A DNA stretch of 64,000 nucleotides, from positions 40,858,001 to 40,922,000 of the forward strand of contig CM060733.1 of NCBI GenBank assembly GCA_030704615.1. Reading direction: 5' to 3'. Source of the DNA: Takakia lepidozioides (Eukaryota > Plantae > Bryophyta). Of the stretch, positions 26,017 to 63,750 are shown in pieces (the first letter of the stretch is position 1; every line of letters begins with the position of its first letter). The notes below the pieces were generated by a model. The model did no database searches. It had not been told where the DNA came from and worked only from the letters and a program-made list of their open reading frames with translations. A program made the position numbers and the translations under genes.

Positions 26017-28014
26017 CTAAAGAAGGCATTTTGCCGCTCGTTCTGCTACCTCCACATCACTGTAGATTCGGCTGGCACCCAGCAGAGTCCCCCAAACTAA
26101 AGAATCTGGTTTGATTGGCATATTCTTGATAAAGTCCTCTGCCTCATTCAGTTGCCCTGCACGGCCAAGAAGGTCCACCATGCAGCCAAAATGTTCCACT
26201 GTAGGAATGAGGCCATGATCTCGACTCATGCAATCCAAGTAATGACGGCCTTCTTCCACTAGGCCCACATGGCTGCACGCACACATAACACATGCAAAGC
26301 TGATAATATCTGGCTTAAAACCTTCCTGCTGCATTTGTTCAAATAGTTGCAGGGCCTCTCTACCATACCCATGTTGAGCATATCCTCCAATCATTGCACT
26401 CCACGAGACCACGTTTCGTCGAGTCATACTGTCAAACACTTGGCGTGCATCCTTCATGCTCCCGCATTTGGCATACATATCAGCAAGAGCAGTCTCCAGA
26501 ATGACATCTGGAGCAATTCCAGCTCTGATGATGTCAGCATGGACCTCTCTGCCCTTTTCTAGGACTGCCAGGCTGGCACAAGCATTGAGAACCGAAGTGA
26601 ACGTGACCATGTCAGGCATCATGCCCTCCTGTATCATTTGCTCATACATCTCCAAAGCCTCCCCACCACAACCATACTGAATGTATCCTGCAATCATTGT
26701 GTTCCAAGAGACCACATTTCGCTGAGCCATATTGTTGAAGACTAGTTGTGCATCCTTCATGCTCCCGCATTTGGCATACATATCAGCAAGGGCAGTCTCC
26801 AGAATGATATCAGGAACGATTCTGGCTTTGCTGATGTCAGCATGGACCTCTTTGCCCTTTGCCAGGGCTCCCTGGCTAGCACATGCATTGAGAACACAAA
26901 TGAAAGCAACTCTATCAGGTGTCACACATTCCTGTAACATTCGCTCGTATGTCACCAAAGCCTCCCCAGCATGCCCCTGCTGAGCATATCCTGCGATCAT
27001 GGCACTCCATGATACCACATCACGTTTAGCCATATTGTCGAACACTTGACATGCGTCCGTCATGCTTCCACATTTGGCATACATGTTGACAAGAGCAGTG
27101 TCCAGAATGATATCTGGGGCAATTCTAGCTTGCATGACGTTAGCATGGACCTCTATGCCCTTTTCAAGGGCTGCCAGGCTGGTACAGACATTGAGAACAC
27201 AAATGAATGTGACCTTGTCGGGCGTCAACCCTTCCCATATCATTCGCTCATACATCTCAAATGCCTCCCTAGCACAACCCTGCTGAGCATATCCTGCAAT
27301 CATCGCATTCCATGAGACAACATCTTGTGCAGCCATATTGTTGAACAACCGACATGCATCATTTATTCTCCCACATTTTGCATACATGTCAGCAAGGGCA
27401 GTCTCCAGCATGATATCTGGCACAATTCCCGCCTTGATAATGTCAGCATGGACCTCTTTGCCCTTTTCCAGGGCTCCTAGGCTGGCACACGCATGAACAA
27501 CACTAGTGAAAGTGACCTTGTCAGGCATTACCCGTTCTCGCCTCAATTGCTCATAGATCTCAAAAGCCTCCCTACCACACCCATGTTTGGCATATCCTGC
27601 TATCATTATATTCCAAGTAAACATATCTCGTTTAGGCATTTTGTCAAATACTTGGCGTGCATCGACCACTCTTCCACACTTCGTATACATGTTGACAAGG
27701 GTGTTGAGTAGACAGTTGTTTGGATTGAATCCACTCTTTATAATGTGGGCATGCACTTTCCTTCCCGATTCTAGGTCCTTAATTTTGATGCACTCCTGCA
27801 AGAGACAGACATAAGTATGGGAGTCTGCTGAAATGCCTGCTTCGTTCAAAATGCCCAGCGCCTCTTGCAGCTGTCCTGCCTTAGATAGTGTCCTCACATC
27901 CACACACATAGCCGAAGAGGACTTGTGGACTCTCTCTCTTGGACAGCTTTCAAAACAGGTGTTCAAGGGGGAGGTGCCTGATTCAAACAATGGTGACTGA
28001 TGAAACCCTGCCAT
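26017..28014 (-). CDS. PLS-class pentatricopeptide repeat protein, 665 aa, truncated in the E domain
   Basis: Repeated P-L-S triplets (DVVSWNAMIAGYAQQG / PDKVTFTSVLNACAS / ETALADMYAKCG), then HFGCMVDLLGRAG and VWGTLLGA (S2/E1). Confidence 0.93.
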   Translation of the reverse strand: MAGFHQSPLFESGTSPLNTCFESCPRERVHKSSSAMCVDVRTLSKAGQLQEALGILNEAGISADSHTYVCLLQECIKIKDLESGRKVHAHIIKSGFNPNNCLLNTLVNMYTKCGRVVDARQVFDKMPKRDMFTWNIMIAGYAKHGCGREAFEIYEQLRRERVMPDKVTFTSVVHACASLGALEKGKEVHADIIKAGIVPDIMLETALADMYAKCGRINDACRLFNNMAAQDVVSWNAMIAGYAQQGCAREAFEMYERMIWEGLTPDKVTFICVLNVCTSLAALEKGIEVHANVMQARIAPDIILDTALVNMYAKCGSMTDACQVFDNMAKRDVVSWSAMIAGYAQQGHAGEALVTYERMLQECVTPDRVAFICVLNACASQGALAKGKEVHADISKARIVPDIILETALADMYAKCGSMKDAQLVFNNMAQRNVVSWNTMIAGYIQYGCGGEALEMYEQMIQEGMMPDMVTFTSVLNACASLAVLEKGREVHADIIRAGIAPDVILETALADMYAKCGSMKDARQVFDSMTRRNVVSWSAMIGGYAQHGYGREALQLFEQMQQEGFKPDIISFACVMCACSHVGLVEEGRHYLDCMSRDHGLIPTVEHFGCMVDLLGRAGQLNEAEDFIKNMPIKPDSLVWGTLLGASRIYSDVEVAERAAKCLL

Positions 28015-28229
28015 CCTGTAGAACTGAAACTCTCAGTTGCAAGCTTTTACAATCAAACTCACATAACATATCTCAAAACTCCTCCACACTACAAAGAGGA
28101 ATGTCTCCATGACGACAGGTTGTTGCTACATTTTAGCAGGGTTATGACTACTGCGGTTGTATACTCCTAGAATAAAAAGGTAACAATCTAATGGCTTGAG
28201 CGGAACGTTAGGTCAACATTGAACAATAC

Positions 28230-29314: not shown

Positions 29315-31909
29315 TCCTGTCGTGGTGTGAAGAAGCGAGCATGCGGCGTAGAGCGAACACCAACGAGATGTTCAAACTCTTTGAAAAGCATTCCTCAAGA
29401 CACGCAAGAACAACTTGTGTTTGCTAAGTCTAGCGTCCTTCTTATCGCACTATTGAACAAGGTTTTGTTAGTAAAGGTGTCAAAGTTATGAGCCAGCAAG
29501 GCCCAAGCCTACACTGCTACTAGACCAATGTTGGGGTTGTTTGATTTCCTTCATAAACTCTGGTTCCGGGTTTTACCAGCGGCGAGAGCTTGAATATGAA
29601 ACCTGAAGTTTCCTGAACCATCTGCAAATGAATAGACCTATCATCAAATAACCGGCATGTCATTCTTTTGACAGATCTTTGGCGTTTTCAACCGATTCTT
29701 TCAAAACCGTGTAGCCACGTCTTTGCGGGTTCTTAGCTTGTTTTATTAGAACGGGGGTAATATATTCACATTGTAAACTTCTTGAGAACCTCCGGGGTCT
29801 GTAGCTGAATCCAACATTGCTCTGTTGCATAGCATTCACTCACTGCATGCACGAGGCTTCCACTGTCAAGGGAGTGAATGCATTCCACGCATCACCTGCC
29901 AACGCTCTTGACATGCACATTGCATCTCGCTGCCCTTGCATTCAATCCTGGATCATCTATCTACACACGTAAAGGATTTTGCCTGCCCTAATATGGCGTA
30001 TTTCCAAGCCCTAGCACATTATGCCAGTTGCACTAGCACATTATGAAACATTAGGACTGGCAGGCCAATAGGAGGGCGGCAGACTCAATGCTTTACGTAC
30101 TGGAATGGGCCGCAACATTCCATTATTATGGCGGTTTCGGCGGCAGCTCGCCCTCCTCGCCCTCCGGCTCGCCACCACCTTACCCGCCACAATGTCATGT
30201 GGCGGCCCATTCCATAGTACGCAACGTTCTCTTCTGCTGCATCTTCCTAGACTTGCCCACCACAAAACGATCCGTGTGAACATTTATACCATCATGGATC
30301 CCCGAAACTATGGAGCAGCAACCGGATGTGTCGGTAGACGCGATAACACTAGAGCACTATGTACTCACTGGCCACATGCCACAAGATTCAAATCGAGTCT
30401 GGGTTCTTCAGGTGCCAAAGCTGGTGAATAGCGTTATGCACCTTGATGTGACACCTGGTTCTGCTTACCAGGCGGGTAGGTATATCATATATCATCCCCA
30501 TTACTTACAAACTACAGTCAGCTGTGCGGAGACCCAGGCAGTCAAAGAGACCATCGAAGTGAAGATTGGGGGATGGATTAGTGTCTGTGTGAGAACAATC
30601 CTGTATATCCAGCTTCACAAGTGCTATAGCAGGCACCCACCACAAAAAAAAATGGTGTTTTCCGTACAGAAGAGTGCATCGAAGAAAAAGAAGTGAGGAA
30701 GCAATCCAATCCACATTACATGAACACATTTTCACCTGCTATTGCTTTGCATTTCACATATATACTCCCACTTTCTCTTATTCCCTTTTGTTGTGTCCAC
30801 CATGATCCTCTTCAGTGCTCAGTGTCATTCTGCCATTGTGTGATGGAACTAGTTTCATCCACAAAGCATCCCCACTCATGGGGTTTCATCTGCTTAGTGT
30901 CTTGAGATAGTATCTGGTGCCCTGTTGCACATGTAATCTCAGGACCCCACTGTTGGGATGCAAAGTGGATAGCACATCCATACACCAGAACTCATGTAAA
31001 AAGGTAAGCAGACTGAAGGCCATATGTAGAATGTGTCAGACATCCTTTCTTGGAAACAGACTCTGTTTGCTGAACCCTGTTGGGTGCTAAGCCCACAGAA
31101 GGCTCTGGGATGTGTAGTTTCCTGTGGGGTCAATGGCCGTAAGGCTATGGCAAGCCAGCATGCACAGGGAAGAGCACAAGTACATTCTATATGTTGAATC
31201 ACAAAGCACATCACAGTACAACACGCAGTTCACAAAATATAACTGTAAACTCCTCAAGCTGTCTCTGAACATGGGAGTGCAAGGATTGCAACATACACTG
31301 GGGGGCAGCTTGGAAAGCAGCAACTCCATGGCGACTCCAGATCAAACTTGTACTCAAAAAGGAGCTCTGCAAAAGATCACATTATTGAACTAAATGCTGA
31401 ATCGTTCAGTGAAGATCACAAAGATCTTTGAAACTAAGGGCACCCTCATGTGCATGGGCCCAACTTACCTTTATTAGTTTCAGTCAAAACTAGCAGTTGT
31501 TAGTATCTGTACACATAATCATCTATACATTACAAGTACATATATTCTACAACTACACTTCCCTAGACTTATCTACAGTCAGGACTCGGACCAATGTTGT
31601 GTAGTGTGTACTATCATCCATGATCATGAAAGCATGGATGTGTCAGTTTACCACTTCCTGTAAATGCTCAGTTAGGGGCTGTGTTGCTCTGTACTCTAAA
31701 AGCTTTCTGTCAATGGTCTAAATTCCTACAGACAAATTATATCTGTTTCAAGTATTCTAAGAGGTGTTGAGATGCTGCGCATCAACGGAGTACTCTATCA
31801 CTATTCCCCTGCAATGCTAGGGGAAGCTAATGGTCAGAAGGGATCGGTACATCTCTCTTAGTGGGAGATCTCTTTCTATGGAATCTCTTCAGTATGCTAC
31901 TCTCTCACT

Positions 31910-32045
31910 CTCTTCCGCCCATACTGGGCACGGGGTCTAATGCCACAAGGCTACAGCAGGCATCTTATGAGTACATTCTCTCTCCCTGTCTCTCTCTCAC
32001 GTCTTCAGGCTACGGCAAACAACGTCTTATGAGTACACTCTCTCA
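31910..32045 (+). repeat. Short interspersed repeat (about 85 bp) plus a partial second copy, CT-microsatellite tailed
   Basis: ttccgcccatactgggcacggggtctaatgccacaaggctac...cttatgagtacattctctctc; same family as 23944, 24253, 59995 and 63655. Confidence 0.85.
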
Positions 32046-32255
32046 CGTCTTCTCCAGGCACTTTGTCCACAGCCACAAGGCTACACTAATTAAGTATGTT
32101 GTCTTCTCTGGTGTCAAGTTAGTCGAGTGCACAGTCACCCTTCAGCATTGAGAGCACAACTGCTCCATTCAATTGCGCCCGTGAGTCCCACACGGCCCCC
32201 TCCAGTCCAGGACCAAATGGATGAGAAAGGAAAATGCCAGCAACCCGATCGAGAG

Positions 32256-40190: not shown

Positions 40191-40778
40191 GGTGAAATTT
40201 TCATTGAAACTTTATAATGGTGGAAAAATTATGGGATGAAGTTTTGGGTACAGTAGGCAAGTTGTATGCTTGCATTCATCCATGTTAGCCCTAATCCACT
40301 GAGTGCGAGCTCGGGCGGCGGATTGGAGAAGCGAGCTCCTGTGAGCTTGGAGTTTGAAAAATTCAAAAGCCAACGGTAACTAAAAAGAAACTTATACAAA
40401 AACTAAAGCATCGGACGATGCACAAGGGATGAGAAAACCACATAGGGAAACCTTGCTCTGCAACTTGAGCGAAGGACAAAACCCTGTGGTGGAAAAATCA
40501 GGTGCTTACATGGTGATGCTAACACCTAGTACGAGAAAAAAAATACCAATCTAAGTCTATGGTTTAGAAGAGGAGGGTGCAAATTGCTGAGAGCAAGCAG
40601 CACGCGTAGGAGTAAGAATCACATGTCTATTCTCAACATTCAAACATATTAGATTGAAAGTAAGAGTGCAGGGAACAAAGCAAATAGACATGAACCATGT
40701 CTGAAAGAGCAAGAATATAATCATGTTGAGGGAGCCAATATTGACGACCAACAAGGATATCTGAAATCAAATAAGGGT

Positions 40779-41127
40779 TGTCAAGTTAAATAAACACAGT
40801 GTGAAACTAACTAGAATAAATCTAGTTATTTGTATTTAACACTTGGATTTAGTTCAAGTGTTAAGTCAGGTGTCAAGTTTAGCTTGACACCTGAACCATC
40901 TTATCTTCACGAGAGCGTCAGTCGTGCGGCTCATCTCTCTCGAGTTGAGCCTGCACGACCGAGCTCCTTCACTGCTTAGAATCTGAGTGTGCTTATGAAG
41001 GGAGAATAGGATGTTGTGGGGTGGAGTCCCCATAGCTTGGAGTGCCCCTAGCTCGACTCTTAGTTTAACGAGTGATGTTGTTGTATTTCATGTCTTTGTG
41101 TCAACAGTGTGAGTTTAGTTTCTATCA
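40779..41127 (+). repeat. Terminal repeat B1 (349 bp)
   Basis: Colinear with 44744-45092, about 12 substitutions counted by eye. Confidence 0.95.
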
Positions 41128-41334
41128 CTCGACAAAGATGCTCTATCTAGTTTTCTAGTGCTAAGCTAGATATGATGTTTTTGTTTTTAAGCACTATTAT
41201 AATATAGCTTGGTCACGGGGAGCCTGCAGTTAGACTGGCTATCTGTGCTGAGTGGAGCAAAACAGGAAGCTTGAGATGTTGCTGCGATTTTTGTCAACCT
41301 GTGGTTATATCTGAGACGACGTATACGACGGTTC

Positions 41335-44300
41335 TTGAGGGCTTACAGGAACTGCTTTGCCTTCAGTTTGAAGGACTTAGGAGCACTGAAGGGTCAAGAG
41401 ATTCGCATTGAATTGGCTACTGACACGCCAATCTTTCGGAGACCCTATAGATACAGTGACATGGAGAGGTCCTTGATTCAGATGAGAACTCAGGACCTTT
41501 GGGAGGCTGGTTTGGTGGAGCTATCTGGGGGAGAGTATGTTTCAGCCACAGTGATGCCAGCCAAGAATGATGTCTATGGCAATTGGACGGAGAGACGTAT
41601 GTGCGGTGATTACCGGCCTGTAAATCATCAGACCAAGTCTGATAGATATATCATGCCAACACCAGAGGAAATCTTTGATGCCATTGGGCATGCCAAGGTC
41701 TTTAGTACTTTGGATTTACGATCCGGATATCACCAATTGCCGATCAAGGAGGCAGATAAACATGAGACGACATTTTGGGGGATCAATGAGCACGGGAAGG
41801 ATTGCTTATACCAGTGGCGGTTCTTATCATTTGGGCTTAAGAACGCTCCTGCAGAGTTTCAGATAGTCATGGACAGGATTCTAGCAGGGGTGGAGTTTGT
41901 TTGGTGCTACATAGATGACATCATCAACTTTAGTGCTATGGTGGAGGAGCATGAGAGACACCTTCACGTGGTATTTGAGCGCTTGAGGGCGCACGGATTG
42001 AAGTTACATCGGGGATGTGCAAGTTTTTCCACAACCAGATTGAGTATCTGGGTCACATGATATATCCTGGAGGATTGGAGGTACAGCAGACTAAGGTAGA
42101 GGCCATTGCACAGATTCCACGCCCCACGGATGTGAGCCGAGTTCGAGCTTTCATGGGGTTCGCAAACTATTATAGACGGTTTGTCAAGGGATTTAATCCC
42201 ATTGCAAAGGCTCTAACCAAGCTGACCAAGGTGAACCAGGAGTGGCAGTGGGAAGATGAGCAAGAACGAGCTTTCTAAGAGCTCAAGGCGAGGTTGACCT
42301 CGGCGCCCATCTTGAGACGACCTATCAGGGGGCGTCCTTTTCAGCTGCATACAGATTGGAGCATGTTGGGGCTTGGGGCGGTGCTCACACAGCTGGATGA
42401 TGAGGGAAGAGAGTTTGTAGTGGCTTATGTCAGTCGCTTGAACAACGCTGCAGAGGCTAAGTATAGCTCATATGAGGGAGAGTGCTTAGCTGCAGTGTGG
42501 GCCGTGGCACACTTCAGGTGCTATCTATATGACAATCTCTTCACCCTTGTCACGGATCACCAGCCACTCAAGTGGTTGATGGAGTCAGACAAGCTTACGG
42601 GGAAGCTTGCACGGTGGGCACTCATACTTCAAGAGTATGACTTTCAGGTTGTGCATCGATCGGGTTTGGTCAATCGGGATGCGGATGGGTTGAGTCGCAA
42701 TCCATGCACGAACCAGCAGGATGACACTGGAGCTCGGTGGCATGGTCAGACGGACGAGGAGATGGTGCCCGGATGGCATGCATCTGCATTTCTGTGTATC
42801 TTGGCAGCAGAAGGCCAGGTTGGACCTACAACAGGGATGACTGTAGACCGAGTGTCTGAGGACCCTGAGGCCAACAATGAGCAAGGTGGCGCCAAAGATA
42901 TACATGAGGATTCAGCTGTGTTGGACTATCTCCGCACTGAGGGCACGACAGCCACTGTAACTGCCAAGGAGAGAGATCGGATCCTACAACGAGCCAAGAG
43001 GTTCAAGTGGGAGGGGACCCACCTGCTCCGAGTGTGGGAAGATGGTCGAGTGAGGATTGTGCCTCACCCAACCCAGCGGGCACGGTTAGTGCGGCATGCC
43101 CATAAGGAGTTGGGGCATTTTGGGGTGCGACGCACTCATAGTCTACTACAGGGGCAGTATTGGTGGCGTGGTATACACACAGAGGTGCAACAATTTGTGG
43201 CTAGGTGCATGGTGTGTGATAGGGTGCGTGCTTCATTCAACGCCCCTATACCACAATTGCACCCTCTTCCGATCATGGAATTGGGCTACAGGTAGAGTCT
43301 TGAATTCGCAGGGCCATTGCCATTGACCATGCGCCACAACAAGTATGTGTTGGTGATGGTGGAGCACTTTTCCAAGTGGATCGAGTTGGTTCCATTGCCT
43401 GATAAGGCTAGTGAGGGAGCTGCGTATGCATTCTTGGATTGTGTACTTAGCTGATTCGGTGCTCCAGCTGAGGTACTCACGGACCAAGGGAGAGAGTTCT
43501 TGGGGGAGTTTCAGGCGTTGTGTGACAAGGCCTTGGTCGACCACCGCACCACTTCTCGGGATCATCCTGAGGCCGATGGCTTGGCAGAGAGGGTTGTTCA
43601 GACAATGAAGAGGGGTTTGCGCAAGTATGGCTTGCAAAAGGGACACCTAGGAGATTGGGACCTTCAGTTACCTTGGTTAGCCATGGGCTACAGGTTTAGC
43701 AAGCAAAGCATCACTTGCCTTCTTCGTACCATACTTTCTTCTCTTTGGCCGAGAGCCGGATTTGCCTGCATCCATTCGTAGAGAAGCTGCTATAGTTCTC
43801 AATCTTGACGATCCGGACATGTGGGCACGTGCATGTGATCAGCGTGCAGAGTTGTTCAAGAAAGTCATGCCCATGGCTTTCGAGAACCTTGCCATTGCAC
43901 AACATCGTGATACGTTGAGGTATGCTACCATACGTGGTGGGGGCTATCGTCCTAGGGTTCGGAGATTTAACCCTGGTGACTATGTTTATCTGCAGCAGAC
44001 TGCTCCTACGACCTTGGATGTGACTGCAGGACGTACTATTTTGAGGGTTCGAGAGGTGTTGCCCTCAGGAGTCCTGATCTTGGAGGATCGGGATGACATG
44101 ATTTGGAAGGACCATGTGCGTAATTGCGCGCCATGTCACCTTCCAAATGTTGATAGAAGGGTTGACCCAAACCTGGCAGTGGTACATGCAAGTTTGAGGT
44201 GTATGTTGTGTGGGTCTGCTAGAGGGGTAGCCACCATGCTGGTGTGTGATCGATGCTCTAGAGGTTAGCATATGGGATGCTTGACTCCACCTCTTGAGAT

Positions 44301-44343
44301 GGTTCCTGATGGGGATTGGTTATGTCCGCATTGCATTGGATAG
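41335..44343 (+). pseudogene. Degraded pol polyprotein: reverse transcriptase, RNase H, integrase, C-terminal PHD finger
   Basis: RMCGDYR, LDLRSGYHQ, FGLKNAPAEFQ and YIDD (RT); LHTDWS...YEGECLA...TDHQPL...ADGLSR (RNase H); H..LGH...C..C, LTDQG and DGLAER (INT); C4HC3 at 44200-44334. Frameshifts and stops at about 42015, 42276, 43293 and 44266. Confidence 0.95.
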
Positions 44344-44656
44344 TGGGAGTGGATACAACCATGGGAGGCTAACAAAAAATGCAAGGCCAAGCTACTATGA
44401 GACCTTGAACACACGAGATCCTGGCTCAAGTTCACAGATTGCAGGACGGCGACTAACGATGGGGCCACTCTTGTACCCGGCCTCTTGGTCTATAGAGTTT
44501 GAGTGCAATAGGGACAGTGATAGAGGACTTAGTACGGCTGTGGCTATAACATCTTGTAGCTATCTGGAGTTAGAGGGACCTATCCACCTGTTGTTGTGGG
44601 GGGGGGGGAGAGCGCGGGAAGAGACTCAATTGATGCGCAGCCAGCTAGGGGGCGAT

Positions 44657-45178
44657 TGTGGCAGACTACTTTATTGTCCATATACATGTGGTGTAGTTTG
44701 GATAGCGATGTAGTTGTGTAGCGATACGTATGCGCACGACAGCTGTCAAGTTAAATAAACACAGTGTGAAACTAACTGGAATAAATCTAGTTATTTGTAT
44801 TTAACACTTGGATTTCGTTCAAGTGTTAAGTCAGGTGTCAAGTTTAGCTTGACACCTGAACCATCTTATCTTCACGAGAGTGTCAGTCGTGCGGCTCATC
44901 TCTCTCGAGTTGAGCCTGCATGACCGAGCTCCTTCAATACTTAGAATCTGAGTGTGCTTATGAAGGGAGAATAAGATGTTGTGGGGTGGAGTCCCCATAG
45001 CTTGGGGTGCCCCTGGCTCGACTCTTAGTTTAACGAGTGATGGTGTTGTATTTCATGTCATTGTGTCAATAGTGTGAGTTTAGTTTCTATCATTGTGGCA
45101 GACTACTTTATTGTTCATATATGTGTGGTGTAGTTTGGACAGCAATGTAGTTGTGTAGCGATACGTATGCGCACGACA
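44657..45178 (+). repeat. Right-end repeat block A1-gc-B2-t-A2
   Basis: A1 44657-44741 and A2 45094-45178 (85 bp, about 5 mismatches) flank B2 44744-45092. Confidence 0.95.
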
Positions 45179-45640
45179 GGGCCATCAATGCGTCTTTTGG
45201 CTTTGGAGACTTGCTTATAACTAGGCTGCAATCGAACACAAATAGATCGACCCACCTTGAAAAAATCTGAGTAGACAACCCGACGGTTATAATTCTTTGC
45301 CTGAGCAGCATGAGCCAGAACAATGTCAAACTTAGCAGTTTCCCTTAGGCGACGTCGCTTGAAATCTAAGTTCAACAAAAACGGACCCCAGTCCTCGGGG
45401 TTAGTGGGAGAGACATGCAAGGAGGTGATATGCAAAGGGGTACAGTTCTTCCTGCCATACATTAATAATTCAAATGGAGAAGACTTGGTACTAGCGTAAA
45501 CAGAGGTTTGATAGGCAAACAACAAGATTAGTATGGCAATATCTCATTCATCGATTCAAGTGCCATTTTTTCTAGCATTTGGCACATAGTTTTGTTGAAA
45601 CGTTCGGTTAAGCCATTCCACTACAGATTATAAGGAACAG
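45179..45640 (-). mobile_element. Older Ty3/gypsy integrase remnant, the insertion target; it continues left of 40778
   Basis: NGLTERFNKT, LFAYQTSVYASTKSSPFELL, ...KAKRRIDG|P. Removing the insert and one TSD copy restores DGPYLISDILVGRQYWL (GPY motif). Confidence 0.85.
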
Positions 45641-47052
45641 TGATTGCATGCTTATTGTTCAAATTGAAGCATACAACCTCCATAAACATTGTCCAACGTG
45701 GCTAAATCTACAATGCATAAATTCTTCAACTCATCCATCATATTTGTGTTTAAAAAAAAAAAAAATTTTGATCAAGGAGAGACAAGGTCTTCAAGATATG
45801 GCATGTTGGGTAAAAAATAGTAAAGCATGTAGTAGGTGGTTGGCTGGATTTGTACGTGCCCAACATTGATTGATACTTATATATACCATGTGCATCGTCT
45901 TTTTTTTCACCCTTGATACATGTATAGCCCGGATATTGCCTTTGTCATTACCAGCCTAAGTAGGGTACTGACCTAAGTATTGCAAATGCCAATACCAAGG
46001 TTCCGGTTCTTAACCCTAGTAATACAAAAATAGATATCAGCCAAGTCGAGGTTCTTTAATACCCTAGTTGATACCCGACCTGACCCTATATATCAGTCCA
46101 ACACTGCAATATTCCTCATGTTATCGTTTCTCAAATACGACATGATATCATGAGCATACATTGAAACTGCAAAACATTCTGAGGACATCCATTGACACTC
46201 CCACAAATGTGCAGAACACTCACAAAGTCCTCCAACGAACTACATTACTTCCTCATTCAGATCTCAACTCAAGTTCACAACATATGTATCAGATGTTCAT
46301 TACAAACAAATCATCTGAGACTACACTACCAAAAGACTAAGCCCACATGAATATCGACTCTGAATATGATGCAGGTCTGCTACAAGATGTCCAGAAATGA
46401 CAGCAGCTCCAGTAATTTAAAAAGCCTACAAAATTGATTTTTATATAATCTACACGCCAACAAGTTAGAGGTTTCCCAGAGTTTCTGTAGCCATTTCACC
46501 TGGGATTTGCTGTCATCCTGGATGATTGAAACATGGAATATACAACTCCATAGCCACCAAGGAATGAGACTCACAGCAACCGAACTGTACAGAAACATCG
46601 GCAAGATAACCATCAACCAAACAATAAAGTGAGGATGATGCTCCAGCAGCAACTATCAAACCCTATGAAACCAAAAGCAAATTAACTACAACAGCAACAG
46701 AAACACAACATATGCTCTAGACTCTAGCGAGACTTATGTTTACATCATACACTACTAAATGTTGTAGATATATGCTTATTTATGCTTAAGTTTCACAGTG
46801 GCAACTAAGCTTTTGGGTTTCTTTATGGCTATATTCAATAAAGACATAATTCAATCCGTGACCTATGCTGAAGAACACATTGTTGTGTGGTCGCAGATGA
46901 ACAAGTCAAAATGAGCTAGAAGCCTACGTTAAAACACCTGAATCCCAGAGCACTAGGCTCCAAATCAAAATGAGCTAGAAGCCTACGTTAGAACACACAT
47001 GTAATTGTCACTGTGGAGTCAATTGGCTGATATGTTAAGGTCACTGTCGAGT

Positions 47053-59600: not shown

Positions 59601-60847
59601 GGTTAGATGGAAGTAATGAAGATCATTGCCGGTGGCATGGGTTGCTGTCATGTCAGGAAGCAGCAGTGCAGGAGGCCAATGGGCGGCTGGAGATGAGCCC
59701 CTCTACTATGTTGTCTCACCCACAGATGTCGTACTTGCTAAACCCAGGTTTGTTCTCTGACAGAGGCTTGGTGGTTACAGTAGCCTTTAAGGCTCTTTTT
59801 TATGTTCCTGCCTGTTTCTGGAGATTTGGGCTGAACAAATTAGTGCAAGCGGCATGGTAGATGGTGGCAGCTGGCTATAATGACTCAAAATTCTTTTTCT
59901 GCATGCTCATCCCCTTCACTGTCATGCAAGAGATGGGTAGTTTGTTATATCCATTGAGGCAAATGAGCACGTTGTGGGTCCATTGCATAATGTGTGTGTG
60001 AGAGAATGTACTCATAAGACGTTGTTTGCCGTAGCCTTGTGGCCATAGACCCCGTGTCCAGTTTGGGCGGAACAAAAGGGAACAGATATCCTCTAGAAAG
60101 CCCTTCACACAAGCATCAATCTGCTGTGTGTGAGCTGCCCAGCAATTATATCCCAACAGGGCCAGGGCTTTAGACTCAACCTCCAGATTTTCAAAGTTGG
60201 TGAATGATGTTCAAGGTTCTTGATGTTCCTGAAGAGGGTCATTCTCTGGTGAGAATACCCCTCTGTGTGTGAGGGAGAGAGAGAGAGTGTGTGTATGTGT
60301 GTGTGTTCATAGTGGGGGGCCGATGCCATATTCAGGGATGCGGATGACCATGTTGCATGGCTGCTTCAGCATGGTTGGCATGAGAAGGCTTTGGCCGCTG
60401 TGGAGGCTGGGAAAGCCAGGACAGAACTGCTGGAAGAGGTACAAGCAACCCTTGTTGTTACTTGTCTACACAAGGTTATGGCACTTGTCAGGGGTGCTGG
60501 CATTCCCAGGATTTGTTCTTTGACGATGCAAAGATTAACCAGGGCTTTCTGAAGAGAAGATATCCAGTAGCAGTATATCTAGTTTGGATCTAGAAATCAT
60601 ATTACAGTTGCAACTACAGGATAATGGGAGGCCACGCTGGGTTGGAGATGATATCCCTATATGAGGATATTGGGCTTGACATATTTATAAGAGAAGGGAG
60701 GGATTGGGAGGTTTGCCACTGAGGGATGGGGGGGATGGTGTAGGTGGGTTCACGATATTTGGACCATTTGTTACTGGAGCGTCAGTATGCCCAAGCTGCT
60801 GCCCTGTGTCCTAAGCTCCTACGGGGCTCTGCACCAGCCTGGGAGAG
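56657..60847 (+). CDS. VPS41: Vacuolar protein sorting 41 (HOPS), 5' part. Exons 56657-56974, 57234-57503, 58405-58575, 59010-59255, 59373-59505, 59657-59747, 60336-60438, 60744-60847; remainder not seen in window
   Basis: Acidic N-terminus, EEPRLKYQRLGGS, IALGTHDG, GSCSDDG, WANDAGVKVYD, RPEVRIVTW...TDAL, YYVVSP.DVV.AKPRDADDHVAWLL and CPKLLRGSAPAWER; phase-consistent GT-AG. Confidence 0.93.
59995..60078 (-). repeat. Short interspersed repeat copy in a VPS41 intron
   Basis: gagagaatgtactcataagacgttgtttgccgtagccttgtggccatagaccccgtgtccagtttgggcggaac abutting (tg)n(ag)n. Confidence 0.88.
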
Positions 60848-60854
60848 GTAAGCC

Positions 60855-62815
60855 TCCAATGCCGCCACATTTGGCATACATGTCCACAAGGGTAGTATTC
60901 AGAATGACATCTGGTACAATTTCAGCTTTGATGATGTCGTATCATGGACCTCTTTGACCTTTCCCAGGGGCTCGCACAAGCATTGCAATGCAAATGAGTG
61001 TGGCCTATCCAGCTTCACCCCTTCCCGCCTAATTTGCTGATAGGTCTTGAAAGCCTCCATCCCACACCCATGCTGGGCATATTCTACAATCATCGCATTC
61101 CAGGACACCACATCCCGTTCAGCCAGATTGTTAAACGCTCCCTTTGCATGTTCAGGGCTGCCGCATTTGTCATACATGTCCACGAGGGTATTGTTCAGAA
61201 ACACAGTTGGTACAGTTCCAGCTTTGATGATGTCACCATGGACCTCTTTATCCTTTTCTAGGCTCCCAGACTCACACATGCATTGCAGACGCAAAACAAA
61301 CGTGACCCCGTTGGGCTTCACCCCTTCCCACACCATTTGCTCCTAGGTCCTGAAGCTCCATCCCAGACCCATGTTGGGCTTATCTTGCAATCATAGTACA
61401 CCAGGACACTACGTTTATTCAGCCATTTTGTCAAACACTCTCTTCGCTGCATTTGGCGTACACGTCCACAAGGGCATGTTCAGAATGACATTTGGTGCAA
61501 TTTCAGCTTTCACCATGGACCTCATTGCCCTTTTTCAGGGCTGCCAGGTTCACACATGCATTGCAAATGCAAACAAATAAGATCCTGTTGGACTTCACCG
61601 CTTCCTGCATCATTTGCTCATATGTCTTATGTTCCACTTGATCAACCTCGTTTGGGAATGTTGCTGAAACCTTGGTGTGCATCCACAATGCTCCTGCACT
61701 TACCATACATAACAAGAATGTTGTGGAGCCACTTTGGATAATGTGAGAGTGCACCTGCTTTCCCACTTCCAGGGCTTTCATCCTGATGCGCGTTTGCAAG
61801 AGACAGAGATAAGCATCTGAATCTGCTGATATGCCTCCTTGGTTCCAAATTTATAGAGCTTCTTTCAGTTGCCCTACTTCACCTAGTGTGCTCACATACC
61901 CAGATTTACCAGAAGATATCTTGTGGACTCCCTCTCTTGGTCCTCTTTTGGTGGTGGAAGTTCCTGCTTTTGTCAGCTGTGCGGCTGCTCCTACTTCCAG
62001 TTGACCATCTACTCATGCAGGATTCTCGTAGCTATCAATCCTCATGGGATCACATGTACTCTTGTGCTTGAAATTCTGCCCTCTTGGGCGAATTTGGACA
62101 TCCTTCCTCCTTCAGCTATCCCTGCCTCGGCACCAATAATGCATAGATCCTTTCCTTGCTGCTAGCAGCTGACAATGGCAGCCGTATATTCTCGGAAAAA
62201 TGCCAATCCTACTTACCACACACTAGTTCCTGTGCTGAATTGCTCCCAAGACTTCGAAAATGTGTTGGGAGACAGGGTGATGTCATGCGATCTTGTTGTC
62301 TGCTCTCTGTAACATAACAGGCATTGACCTTTTTACCTCAATTGCCCCACCATTGACTGCGGTTCGAATATTCCTTCCAAAGCTTCTCCTCACCATTTTT
62401 GAATATTTGCCTGTTGCCACATTGGCAGTAACATGTGAAAACATTCAGGACCACCATAGATCCAGCCACTGAGCCAACTTACAAAACTCGACAAGGAAAG
62501 TCGGGGTTGAATCTGATAGGAGGACAAAACAAGCTTAAAGGTGTTGAAGGAAAAGGCCGTCACCGGATTGTCCTTGACCTTGTGTTATGAGAGCAGCGGG
62601 CTTTCCTTTCACGCAAGGAGGTTGAACCCGCCCTCAATCCAAATGACGTGTGTGTGCTGCTTATGTCCGTAGTCTGTGGGTTGGTCGTGAAAACCAACAC
62701 AGTGCAGCTGAGCAGCCATAGGAAGCCCGTACCTTGCCATCGTGGTTGTCCCACCATTGTGAAGGATCCTTACAGCACTCCTGCCAGCACTGTTCCATAC
62801 TCCGTTCATGCCAGA
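60855..62815 (-). pseudogene. PDF-PPR locus copy 3, antisense directly after VPS41 exon 8
   Basis: MEQCWQECCKDPSQWWDNHDGK|gt (ends 62733), PTDYGHKQHTHVIWIEGGFN, then PREGVHKISS / VSTLGEVGQLKEAL / GISADSDAYLCLLQ..IRMKALEVGKQVHSHIIQSG and broken PLS repeats, paralleling the 28014 ORF N-terminus. Confidence 0.85.
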
Positions 62816-63654
62816 AACTCAAAGAGCAGCACAGTTTGGCAAGTTTCTTTATTGAGGGCAAGTGTAAGCTTTCAACAACATGCATGCAAGCCACTCTGGG
62901 CTCTATTGCATTCAATACAATGAGGGACATACAAACATGTCCAAAGTTACAGATGCCAAACAAGCTTTTGCATGACAAGGGCTGCCCCTCTGATCAGCCT
63001 CACCATTAACAGTGACGATTGAATCCAAGTCTCTTAAGCGAGGCATAATTCAGGCCACAGCTTTATACAAAGCGAAATCATCTGATGTAATGCTTCTCTC
63101 TGCCATACTACCTGAGCATGTGCATGAGTTTTTCTGTGACGAAGAGTATTGCACCCTTGCCTTCATTCAGGGAGAGCAGTTTTCTTCTGAAGACCAACAG
63201 GTATTTGATGCCATTGTTTTTGCAAAGAACCATGGATCTGTGTACAAAGAACTCAAGGCAGGAAACAAATCGTGGTATGCCCTGAATTTGGATAGCCTGA
63301 CTACAGCGATAGTTACGAGTGCTTGTGGCATATCCGAAATCTTGAATAAGCTTTGTTGTAATTTTGTGCGTGTCTCAGCTAAGAACCTCCTGGTATTCCT
63401 CTAGTGGAAGCAAATTGGAGAGGGATATCAACCATCTGTTCATCACTCGTAGTTTTCACTAGAATACAAGCATTTATGAGTCATGCATCATCTTTTTCTC
63501 TACAAGAGCAACTACTTTTGCAGCCAACCAAATTTAACAAGCTAACCTGGCTCAATATCACAACTGTGAGTCATGCTCACTTTCATCTTTTATGGGCTGA
63601 GGGCTTGGTATGCATGGCAGGTTTCCTTTTTTTCTCTCTCTCTCTCTCTCTTAC

Positions 63655-63750
63655 TCTCCCTGTTGTTCCGCTCAAACTGGGCGAGGGGTCTATGGCCACA
63701 AGGCCATGGCAAACAACGTCTTATGAGTACATTCTCTCTCTTACTCTCTT
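63655..63750 (+). repeat. Short interspersed repeat copy between CT-rich tracts
   Basis: gttccgctcaaactgggcgaggggtctatggccacaaggccatggcaaacaacgtcttatgagtacattctctctc. Confidence 0.88.

Follow-up and report, generated by a model that had tools for sequence, protein, structure and literature searches.

How can a retrotransposon that encodes an integrase of the DDE type come to begin and end inside its own terminal repeat? This question is raised by a Ty3/gypsy element of Takakia lepidozioides (Bryophyta), which occupies, together with its target-site duplications, positions 40775..45182 of a stretch of 64,000 nucleotides (assembly GCA_030704615.1, contig CM060733.1, positions 40,858,001 to 40,922,000 of the forward strand; hereafter called the window, in whose own numbering all positions are given). 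The terminal repeat of this element is made of two parts, A and B, and the layout of the element is B...PPT-A-GC-B-A, where PPT is the polypurine tract; its first bases are TGTC, and its last bases are GACA. Insertions in this lineage of green plants start at one half of a palindrome within the terminal repeat and finish at the other; we consider it likely that, before this, the ends of the cDNA are joined to each other and the joined molecule is opened at the palindrome by the DDE integrase.

Termini and target site of the window copy

Alignment of the repeats bears out the arrangement that had been described in a first-pass annotation made from the letters alone, namely, a B of 349 bp on the left and a PPT, an A of 85 bp, GC, B, and A on the right. 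The two copies of B (B1, 40779-41127; B2, 44744-45092) are mismatched at 12/349 bp and those of A (A1, 44657-44741; A2, 45094-45178) at 5/85 bp, which is not a different rate of divergence (Fisher p=0.35), and all four repeats are hence considered to have aged together. Transitions account for 13 of the 17 differences in B1/B2 and A1/A2. The A repeat is, furthermore, two bases longer on its 5' side (from 44655 and 45092) and thus overlaps the end of B; the single t that had been taken as a spacer between B and A belongs to this overlap. Also as described before, the element starts with TGTC and ends with GACA, the halves of the palindrome GACA-GC-TGTC without its central GC, and an uncut copy of this palindrome is retained at 44738-44747.

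The flanks GGGT and GGGC constitute a 4-bp target duplication with one mismatch (3/4 bases). When the flanks were translated separately on the minus strand, one ended with ...KRRIDG and the other started with PYLISD; the right flank matched the C-termini of canonical gypsy integrases (blastx E 1e-5 to 4e-5), and the left flank gave no match in blastx. Given these frames and the integrase match of the right flank, the earlier reading of the empty site, in which the host frame is restored upon removal of the insert, stands as it was given. Contigs with no difference from the window span both ends of the element (40454-40804 and 45152-45700) and reach only 26-27 nt inside; they fall short of the 31 nt inside the element that defines bridging in our analysis and may come from the same sample as the window. 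Summed contig depth, ~1e5-1e6 inside the element versus 50-72 for the end contigs, shows that the family is highly repeated in the host and was not used as copy number. The features concerned are as follows.

40775..40778, unstranded: left target-site duplication GGGT, a 4-bp length seen in 8/9 complete relatives
40779..41127, plus strand: B1, the left terminal repeat, corresponding to the 3' part of the putative 5' long terminal repeat (LTR) and starting with the palindrome half TGTC
44655..44741, plus strand: A1, corresponding to the 5' part of the putative 3' LTR and ending with GACA
44738..44747, unstranded: palindrome GACA-GC-TGTC, an uncut copy of the putative integrase attachment site
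44744..45092, plus strand: B2, corresponding to the 3' part of the putative 3' LTR
45092..45178, plus strand: A2, the permuted 5' part of the putative 5' LTR, with a 1-nt overlap with B2 and ending with GACA
45179..45182, unstranded: right target-site duplication GGGC
45179..45800, minus strand: host sequence, a decayed canonical Ty3/gypsy integrase split by the insertion, the frame of which resumes below 40778

Near the start of B, three strong hairpins stand in a row (approximately 40808-40894 in B1 and 44773-44859 in B2).

Ends, duplications, and spacer in the relatives

Relatives were collected as 80 metagenome loci, of which 55 could be assigned to one of four families by a match to its repeat unit, and loci with shared flanks were merged (L061 and L076 by eye). 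The other 25 loci had no match to a repeat unit and do not enter the end counts; the palindrome was looked for in 16 of these and found in four. Also outside the end counts are L015, L047, L065 (A cut short), L068, L042, L059, L072/L079 (aberrant ends), L009, and L062, and no ends were taken from L003 and L081, which look like collapsed repeat contigs.

Distinct right ends were of the form A-nn-B-A in 12 cases and A only in 18 (19 with L080). None of the 11 left ends begins with A, A did not follow B1 in any of the 12 B1 ends read, and canonical copies of the form AB...AB or BA...BA were not found among the 11 left ends. Complete relatives numbered nine, four with B...ABA and five with B...A, a form that had not been noted in the first-pass annotation, and a perfect 4-bp target duplication was found in eight of these nine and a perfect 5- or 6-bp duplication in none. 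The spacer at the internal junction was 2 nt long in 15/15 (GC, 6; AC, 3; GT, 3; AT, 2; TC, 1), and all of these dinucleotides except TC are either GC or products of its deamination. The palindrome with a 2-nt spacer was present also in L002, L003, L008, L013, L081, L082, and L083; in families whose repeats are unrelated, the same 10-mer lies 90-181 nt past the G tract, and in L083 it lies farther away. L013, which bears this palindrome, groups with Klebsormidium proteins (100/98). L082 has a young A-B-A end, in which A1 and A2 are identical over 106/106 nt, and provides no readable joint between B and A. Sites that were represented in more than one assembly held their form (five A-only and four ABA), the assemblies being not necessarily independent. 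Right ends with A-B and no A2 occurred in L042, L059, and L072/L079.

The layout B...PPT-A-nn-B-A or B...A, the ends TGTC and GACA, the 4-bp duplication, and the DDE integrase are thus family-wide, and the layout, the palindrome, the 2-nt spacer, and the 4-bp duplication are found again in several families whose repeats have no other sequence in common. Among the relatives, the tabulation of termini and duplication lengths that had been proposed in the first-pass annotation gave recurrent B...ABA with duplications of 4 bp and not 5 bp. One of the two explanations put forward there was that a single two-LTR circle had been opened at a chance pseudo-attachment site; to this can be added a local rearrangement or an assembly error of an ordinary element. 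Circles are indeed established as normal by-products of LTR elements, and the support for the locus comes without long reads; nonetheless, the dozens of sites, in repeat families unrelated to one another, at which the same layout, palindrome, spacer, and duplication are found, the lack of AB...AB or BA...BA among the 11 left ends, and other copies in contigs that also read PPT-A and B-internal make these accounts very improbable for the window copy, and the family-wide recurrence rules out a one-off circle as the general account. The palindrome would then be a regular attachment site and not a pseudo-site. The other explanation, routine transposition through a circular intermediate, is supported by the recurrence as far as the routine is concerned; the closed circle and the cutting by the integrase are steps that we infer.

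Priming sites and the position of the LTR

44647..44652, plus strand: PPT AGGGGG directly before A1, found at the same place in all relatives read
40932..40944, plus strand: segment of B1 with complementarity to the sequence that directly follows B1 (11/13 pairs, 0/500 shuffles), a putative 5' end of the transcript and self-primer
41128..41140, plus strand: position of the primer-binding site, with no TGG of the tRNA type; pairs with 40932-40944, and likewise in L022, L060, L057, L081, and L003

A G tract lies directly 5' of A in every right end read. PPT-A is likewise seen in other copies of the window family, in 8-16 contigs of each run at 44588, and the passage from B into the internal region is seen in 12 contigs, which carry a variant at 41133. 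A 59-nt stretch at 44589-44647, which includes a run of 11 G (44598-44608), is absent from many of the other copies (joints 44588>44647/8). The possibility that the LTR is simply B+A with a locally duplicated A1 was thus ruled out, PPT-A being found in every right end read and A after B1 in 0/12.

At the other end of the internal region, no TGG of the tRNA type was found after B1 in the copies read, for which no comparison with a tRNA library was made. Instead, the 11-16 nt following B1 pair with the middle of B. In a mismatch-tolerant shuffle test, which replaced an earlier, weak test of perfect runs (5/11 at 3/300 or better; 214/300 for the window), complementarity was found in 4/12 copies; the pairing was 13/13 in L022 and 12/13 in L060 (0/500 shuffles each) and 11/13 in L057 (10/500), and L081 and L003 paired at 12/12 with no shuffle control. 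In L059 (L059:3361-3878), furthermore, B is followed by a copy of the primer site and then by an inverted B (180-1) extending to GACA at the flank, which corresponds to a fold-back at exactly the priming site, and this fold-back product appears to have been integrated. The arrangement recalls the self-priming predicted for Tcn1 and Tf1/Sushi elements (PMC6317226), and reverse transcription would probably be self-primed.

Because the sites for plus- and minus-strand priming bracket A-GC-B, this unit would, from the standpoint of replication, be the LTR. That A-GC-B is the true LTR, and B|A a joint between two LTRs, as had been proposed, is supported by the PPT before A, the priming-like site after B, and the variability of the joint described below.

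The joint between B and A

In one family with seven copies, the B|A joint occurs as five different strings with 2-5 nt between fixed anchors, whereas the same boundaries are constant in their template context: the end of B1 has the same length in 4/4, and G|ATACATG is found in 18/18. In four copies of a second family, the joint was 3, 3, 4, and 22 nt long, and the 22-nt filler is built of neighbouring pieces. One joint is common to two copies, L012 and L023. Position-specific differences between A1 and A2 were found in 0/113 and 0/187 columns, and A1 and A2 of the same copy are nearer to each other than cross pairs (0.077/0.079 versus 0.103/0.100), as is expected when both are copied from one template in every cycle. 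The variable joint and this pattern in A1 and A2 fit a joint that would be newly made by end-joining, with A2 as the front part, now displaced, of the 5' LTR.

Templating of the joint would be the alternative. In a scheme like that of Ngaro and PAT, the RNA carries B2-A2, and the internal A-GC-B templates the junction of a circle, the final enzyme being the DDE integrase and not a tyrosine recombinase. This scheme makes end-joining unnecessary and accounts for the joint common to L012 and L023; also, the formal layout is that of Ngaro, PAT, and VIPER (PMC6681497, in its available part), and a similar label is given in the available text of de Mendoza et al. It is, however, difficult to reconcile with a joint that differs between sister copies while the template boundaries stay constant, with an A2 that has no lineage-specific differences from A1, and with a PPT and a priming site that are placed as an ordinary A-GC-B LTR requires, and we regard such templating as quite improbable.

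Coding content and lineage

41141..41340, plus strand: short 5' internal stretch, from which the ~5 kb of gag, protease, and DNA methyltransferase (DNMT) of full-length relatives is absent (tblastn with the intact open reading frames (ORFs) of L003)
41341..44334, plus strand: decayed pol with reverse transcriptase (RT), RNase H (RH), H2C2 zinc finger, DDE integrase (INT) core, and C-terminal PHD finger, with several stops and frameshifts

The window copy has no gag, protease, or DNMT, a loss not remarked upon in the first-pass annotation; with pol broken and the pol match starting ~210 nt after B1 versus ~5 kb in full-length relatives, it is an internally deleted and dead copy. Other copies of the family diverge from the window sequence before 41313 (loose contig ends). 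Pfam found RVT_1, RT_RNaseH, and Integrase_H2C2 in the window pol, and rve weakly; the order of pol is (PR)-RT-RH-INT, where PR is protease, with an RT of the gypsy type. The best match in PDB was Ty3 Gag-Pol (E 4e-98), and the closest solved structures were Ty3 RT and foamy-virus integrase. The window pol is 62-66% identical to residues 46-1034 of the intact L003 pol, in which residues 990-1034 are the PHD finger.

Full-length relatives (7.7-9.9 kb) encode Gag, a zinc knuckle (recognized by eye), protease, and a C5 cytosine methyltransferase, followed by RT-RH-INT-PHD. In L003:976-8229, which looks intact, a Gag-protease-DNMT frame of 1369 amino acids (aa) and an RT-RH-INT-PHD frame of 1047 aa are in the same phase and separated by one stop codon, which suggests read-through of the stop. 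The spacing between the second D and the E of the integrase is 34 residues in 80 of the 82 proteins parsed (P0001-P0120 and L003:5086-8226) and 35 in the other two, which are canonical outgroups; this D(34)E core, shorter by one residue, may bear on the cutting of the junction or on the 4-bp duplication.

The DDE integrase noted earlier is thus confirmed by its domains, and no tyrosine recombinase was found: PF00589 was hit in 0 of the 120 listed homologues (P0001-P0120, out of 246 longer homologues at E 1e-30) and neither of the two large ORFs of the intact L003 holds a recombinase, the short ORFs of the long relatives not having been scanned singly. In the window copy, there is no room for a recombinase in the ~210 nt before pol and the ~320 nt after it. 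By its enzymes (DDE integrase and H2C2 finger), the element is Ty3/gypsy; it does not carry two whole LTRs in direct repeat at its ends, and it does not belong to the DIRS order.

Most of the 120 listed homologues have RT-RH-INT with PHD, some of them with DNMT, and the named sources among them are Calypogeia, Marchantia, Klebsormidium, Closterium, and chlorophytes. In a tree of RNase H (150 columns, midpoint root; L023 and L057 with a short match and L025 with no match were left out), the window copy groups with Calypogeia, Marchantia, and the loci L005 and L060 (support 99/96), within a group of 45 rows (94/87, not starred) apart from the canonical gypsy rows. A search of viral contigs returned nothing. 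Seven contigs from prokaryotic genome bins (L081-L087) encode relatives and are likely eukaryotic contamination of the bins.

Proposed route of integration

Our preferred reading, i.e., joined cDNA ends opened at the palindrome, can be put into the following steps. Reverse transcription of the LTR type, probably self-primed, would produce [A-GC-B]-internal-[A-GC-B], as judged from the positions of the PPT and the priming site. The outer ends would then be end-joined, as the variable B|A joint suggests, and a two-LTR circle formed ahead of integration is the most likely product. A staggered cut past CA on both strands of GACA-GC-TGTC, presumably by the integrase, would leave CA-3'OH ends with 2-nt 5' overhangs, which are the ends that integrases produce by 3' processing, and strand transfer at positions 4 bp apart would generate the target duplication and the product B-internal-AB|A. 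The site in the 5' LTR would be favoured, perhaps since the 5' LTR becomes double-stranded first; that the element's own DNMT causes the bias by methylating the other site is a speculation. A one-LTR circle opened likewise would give B-internal-A, and such copies would be dead on arrival because the second B is absent.

No closed circle would be needed if the integrase cut the 5'-LTR palindrome of linear cDNA and inserted both of the cut ends, and the host joined the free B and A. The variable joint follows just as readily from this route; if the integrase loads first at the 5' site, the one-sidedness also fits, and the A-B ends without A2 (L042, L059, and L072/L079) are of the kind expected from failed repair. 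It entails, on the other hand, a chromosome break with every insertion, and the B...A copies would still require a one-LTR circle or later recombination. We regard it as unlikely, and genomic sequence does not separate it from the closed-circle model.

Several points weigh against the reading with joined ends opened at the palindrome. The relatives are contigs from short-read metagenomes, and the end counts exclude the other copies in the window's own genome. L035 (B...A, L035:4149-13213) has no 4-bp duplication; its left flank ends with GC and has TCTAGC in common with L038, where it occurs in the right flank of the same site. Two copies that are 99.4% alike over 2.7 kb, L019 (A-B-A) and L021 (A), have different ends, and the B...A copies could stem from later recombination between A1 and A2 or from assembly. 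From a circle with two equal sites, moreover, copies of the form B-A-B...A are expected, but these were 0 of the 11 left ends (p ~0.004 if equally common). The self-priming match was not significant in 7/12 B1 copies in the 13-nt test, and the best 13-nt match of L070 lies elsewhere. In one family, the joint lies in a low-complexity TTCAA stretch, and part of its change in length could be due to slippage. Finally, cleavage, circles, and transcripts are deduced from the arrangement of the copies, and none of them was observed.

With these points taken into account, and with somewhat less confidence than in the joined ends, we favour the view of an old LTR lineage, ranging from green algae to bryophytes and with a clade-specific D(34)E core, in which the attachment site has shifted away from the cDNA ends to a conserved palindrome inside the LTR and circles with one or two LTRs, which lead nowhere in retroviruses, are the normal substrates. 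In using an intermediate with joined ends, this lineage may work like the DIRS order.

Comparison with known systems

In the accepted view, integration of LTR retrotransposons and retroviruses proceeds from the ends of linear cDNA, and circles are by-products; the old question of whether circles can be productive substrates has been pursued mainly with the integrases of human immunodeficiency virus (HIV) and foamy virus in vitro. Among bacterial elements, IS3/IS911 and IS30 have a DDE enzyme that acts on abutted ends with a 2-3 bp spacer in a circle. They differ in being DNA transposons, in which the transposase makes the junction and no internal repeat carries it. A natural and abundant lineage with all insertions at an internal palindrome would be a direct test system for the question of productive circles.

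Cleavage of the palindromic two-LTR junction by HIV-1 integrase in vitro (PMC1905944) resembles the proposed step in its DDE integrase and in an internal palindrome ending with CA on both strands. In the retroviral case, the palindrome arises where the two cDNA ends meet and serves a side route, whereas in the present elements it is carried by the LTR as a templated sequence and seems to offer the sole route.

The closest precedent is KnitGypsy-Dnmt3 of Klebsormidium nitens, for which a DIRS-type repeat structure with Gypsy domains is given in the legend of Fig. 4c (de Mendoza et al. 2018, PMC5890265). Gypsy domains, DIRS-type repeats, and a cytosine methyltransferase in the polyprotein are shared with the full-length relatives described here; the DNMT has been lost from the window copy. 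In its available part, the account (PMC5890265) devotes one sentence to the repeats and is silent on termini, on a palindrome or duplication, on a priming site, on a B...A form or mechanism, and on a PHD finger. Klebsormidium proteins are found in the 45-row RNase H group of the window copy (94/87, midpoint root) and may or may not include KnitGypsy-Dnmt3 itself. No account of the termini or the mechanism of such elements was found in the literature searched, in which few subscription journals, theses, and Repbase reports were covered, and no split-repeat gypsy element is described in the available parts of Chlamydomonas papers and of a 2026 preprint on methyltransferase-bearing retrotransposons. 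The layout has thus been mentioned once before in print, in the legend cited, and the mechanism has apparently not been described.

Ngaro, PAT, VIPER, and TATE are tyrosine-recombinase retroelements with split direct repeats (PMC6681497) and, as far as the available part of that source goes, have one 5' repeat, three interleaved 3' repeats (A1...B1-A2-B2), and an internal copy of the joined ends. The present elements differ from them in the DDE integrase, the TG...CA ends, the 2-nt spacer, the 4-bp duplications, and an RT closest to Ty3. Split direct repeats alone, therefore, do not imply a tyrosine recombinase. Chromoviruses of the Tcn1 and Tf1-Sushi types in mosses and fungi, in which predicted self-priming replaces the tRNA primer, are likewise Ty3/gypsy elements of seedless plants (PMC6317226, in its available part), but they possess a chromodomain and two whole LTRs instead of the PHD finger and the permuted repeats seen here. 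In algal and bryophyte genomes, the present elements would escape tools that depend on two whole LTRs or be mis-dated by them; two LTRs were required in the REXdb survey, and this may be why the elements would be missed there.

Other features of the window

Two repeat-protein genes, which resemble those of the pentatricopeptide-repeat type, lie at 26017-28032 (minus strand) and approximately 60860-61950. A short dispersed repeat resembling a miniature inverted-repeat transposable element is present in inverted and direct copies at 59998-60081, 63646-63740, and 31900-32046.

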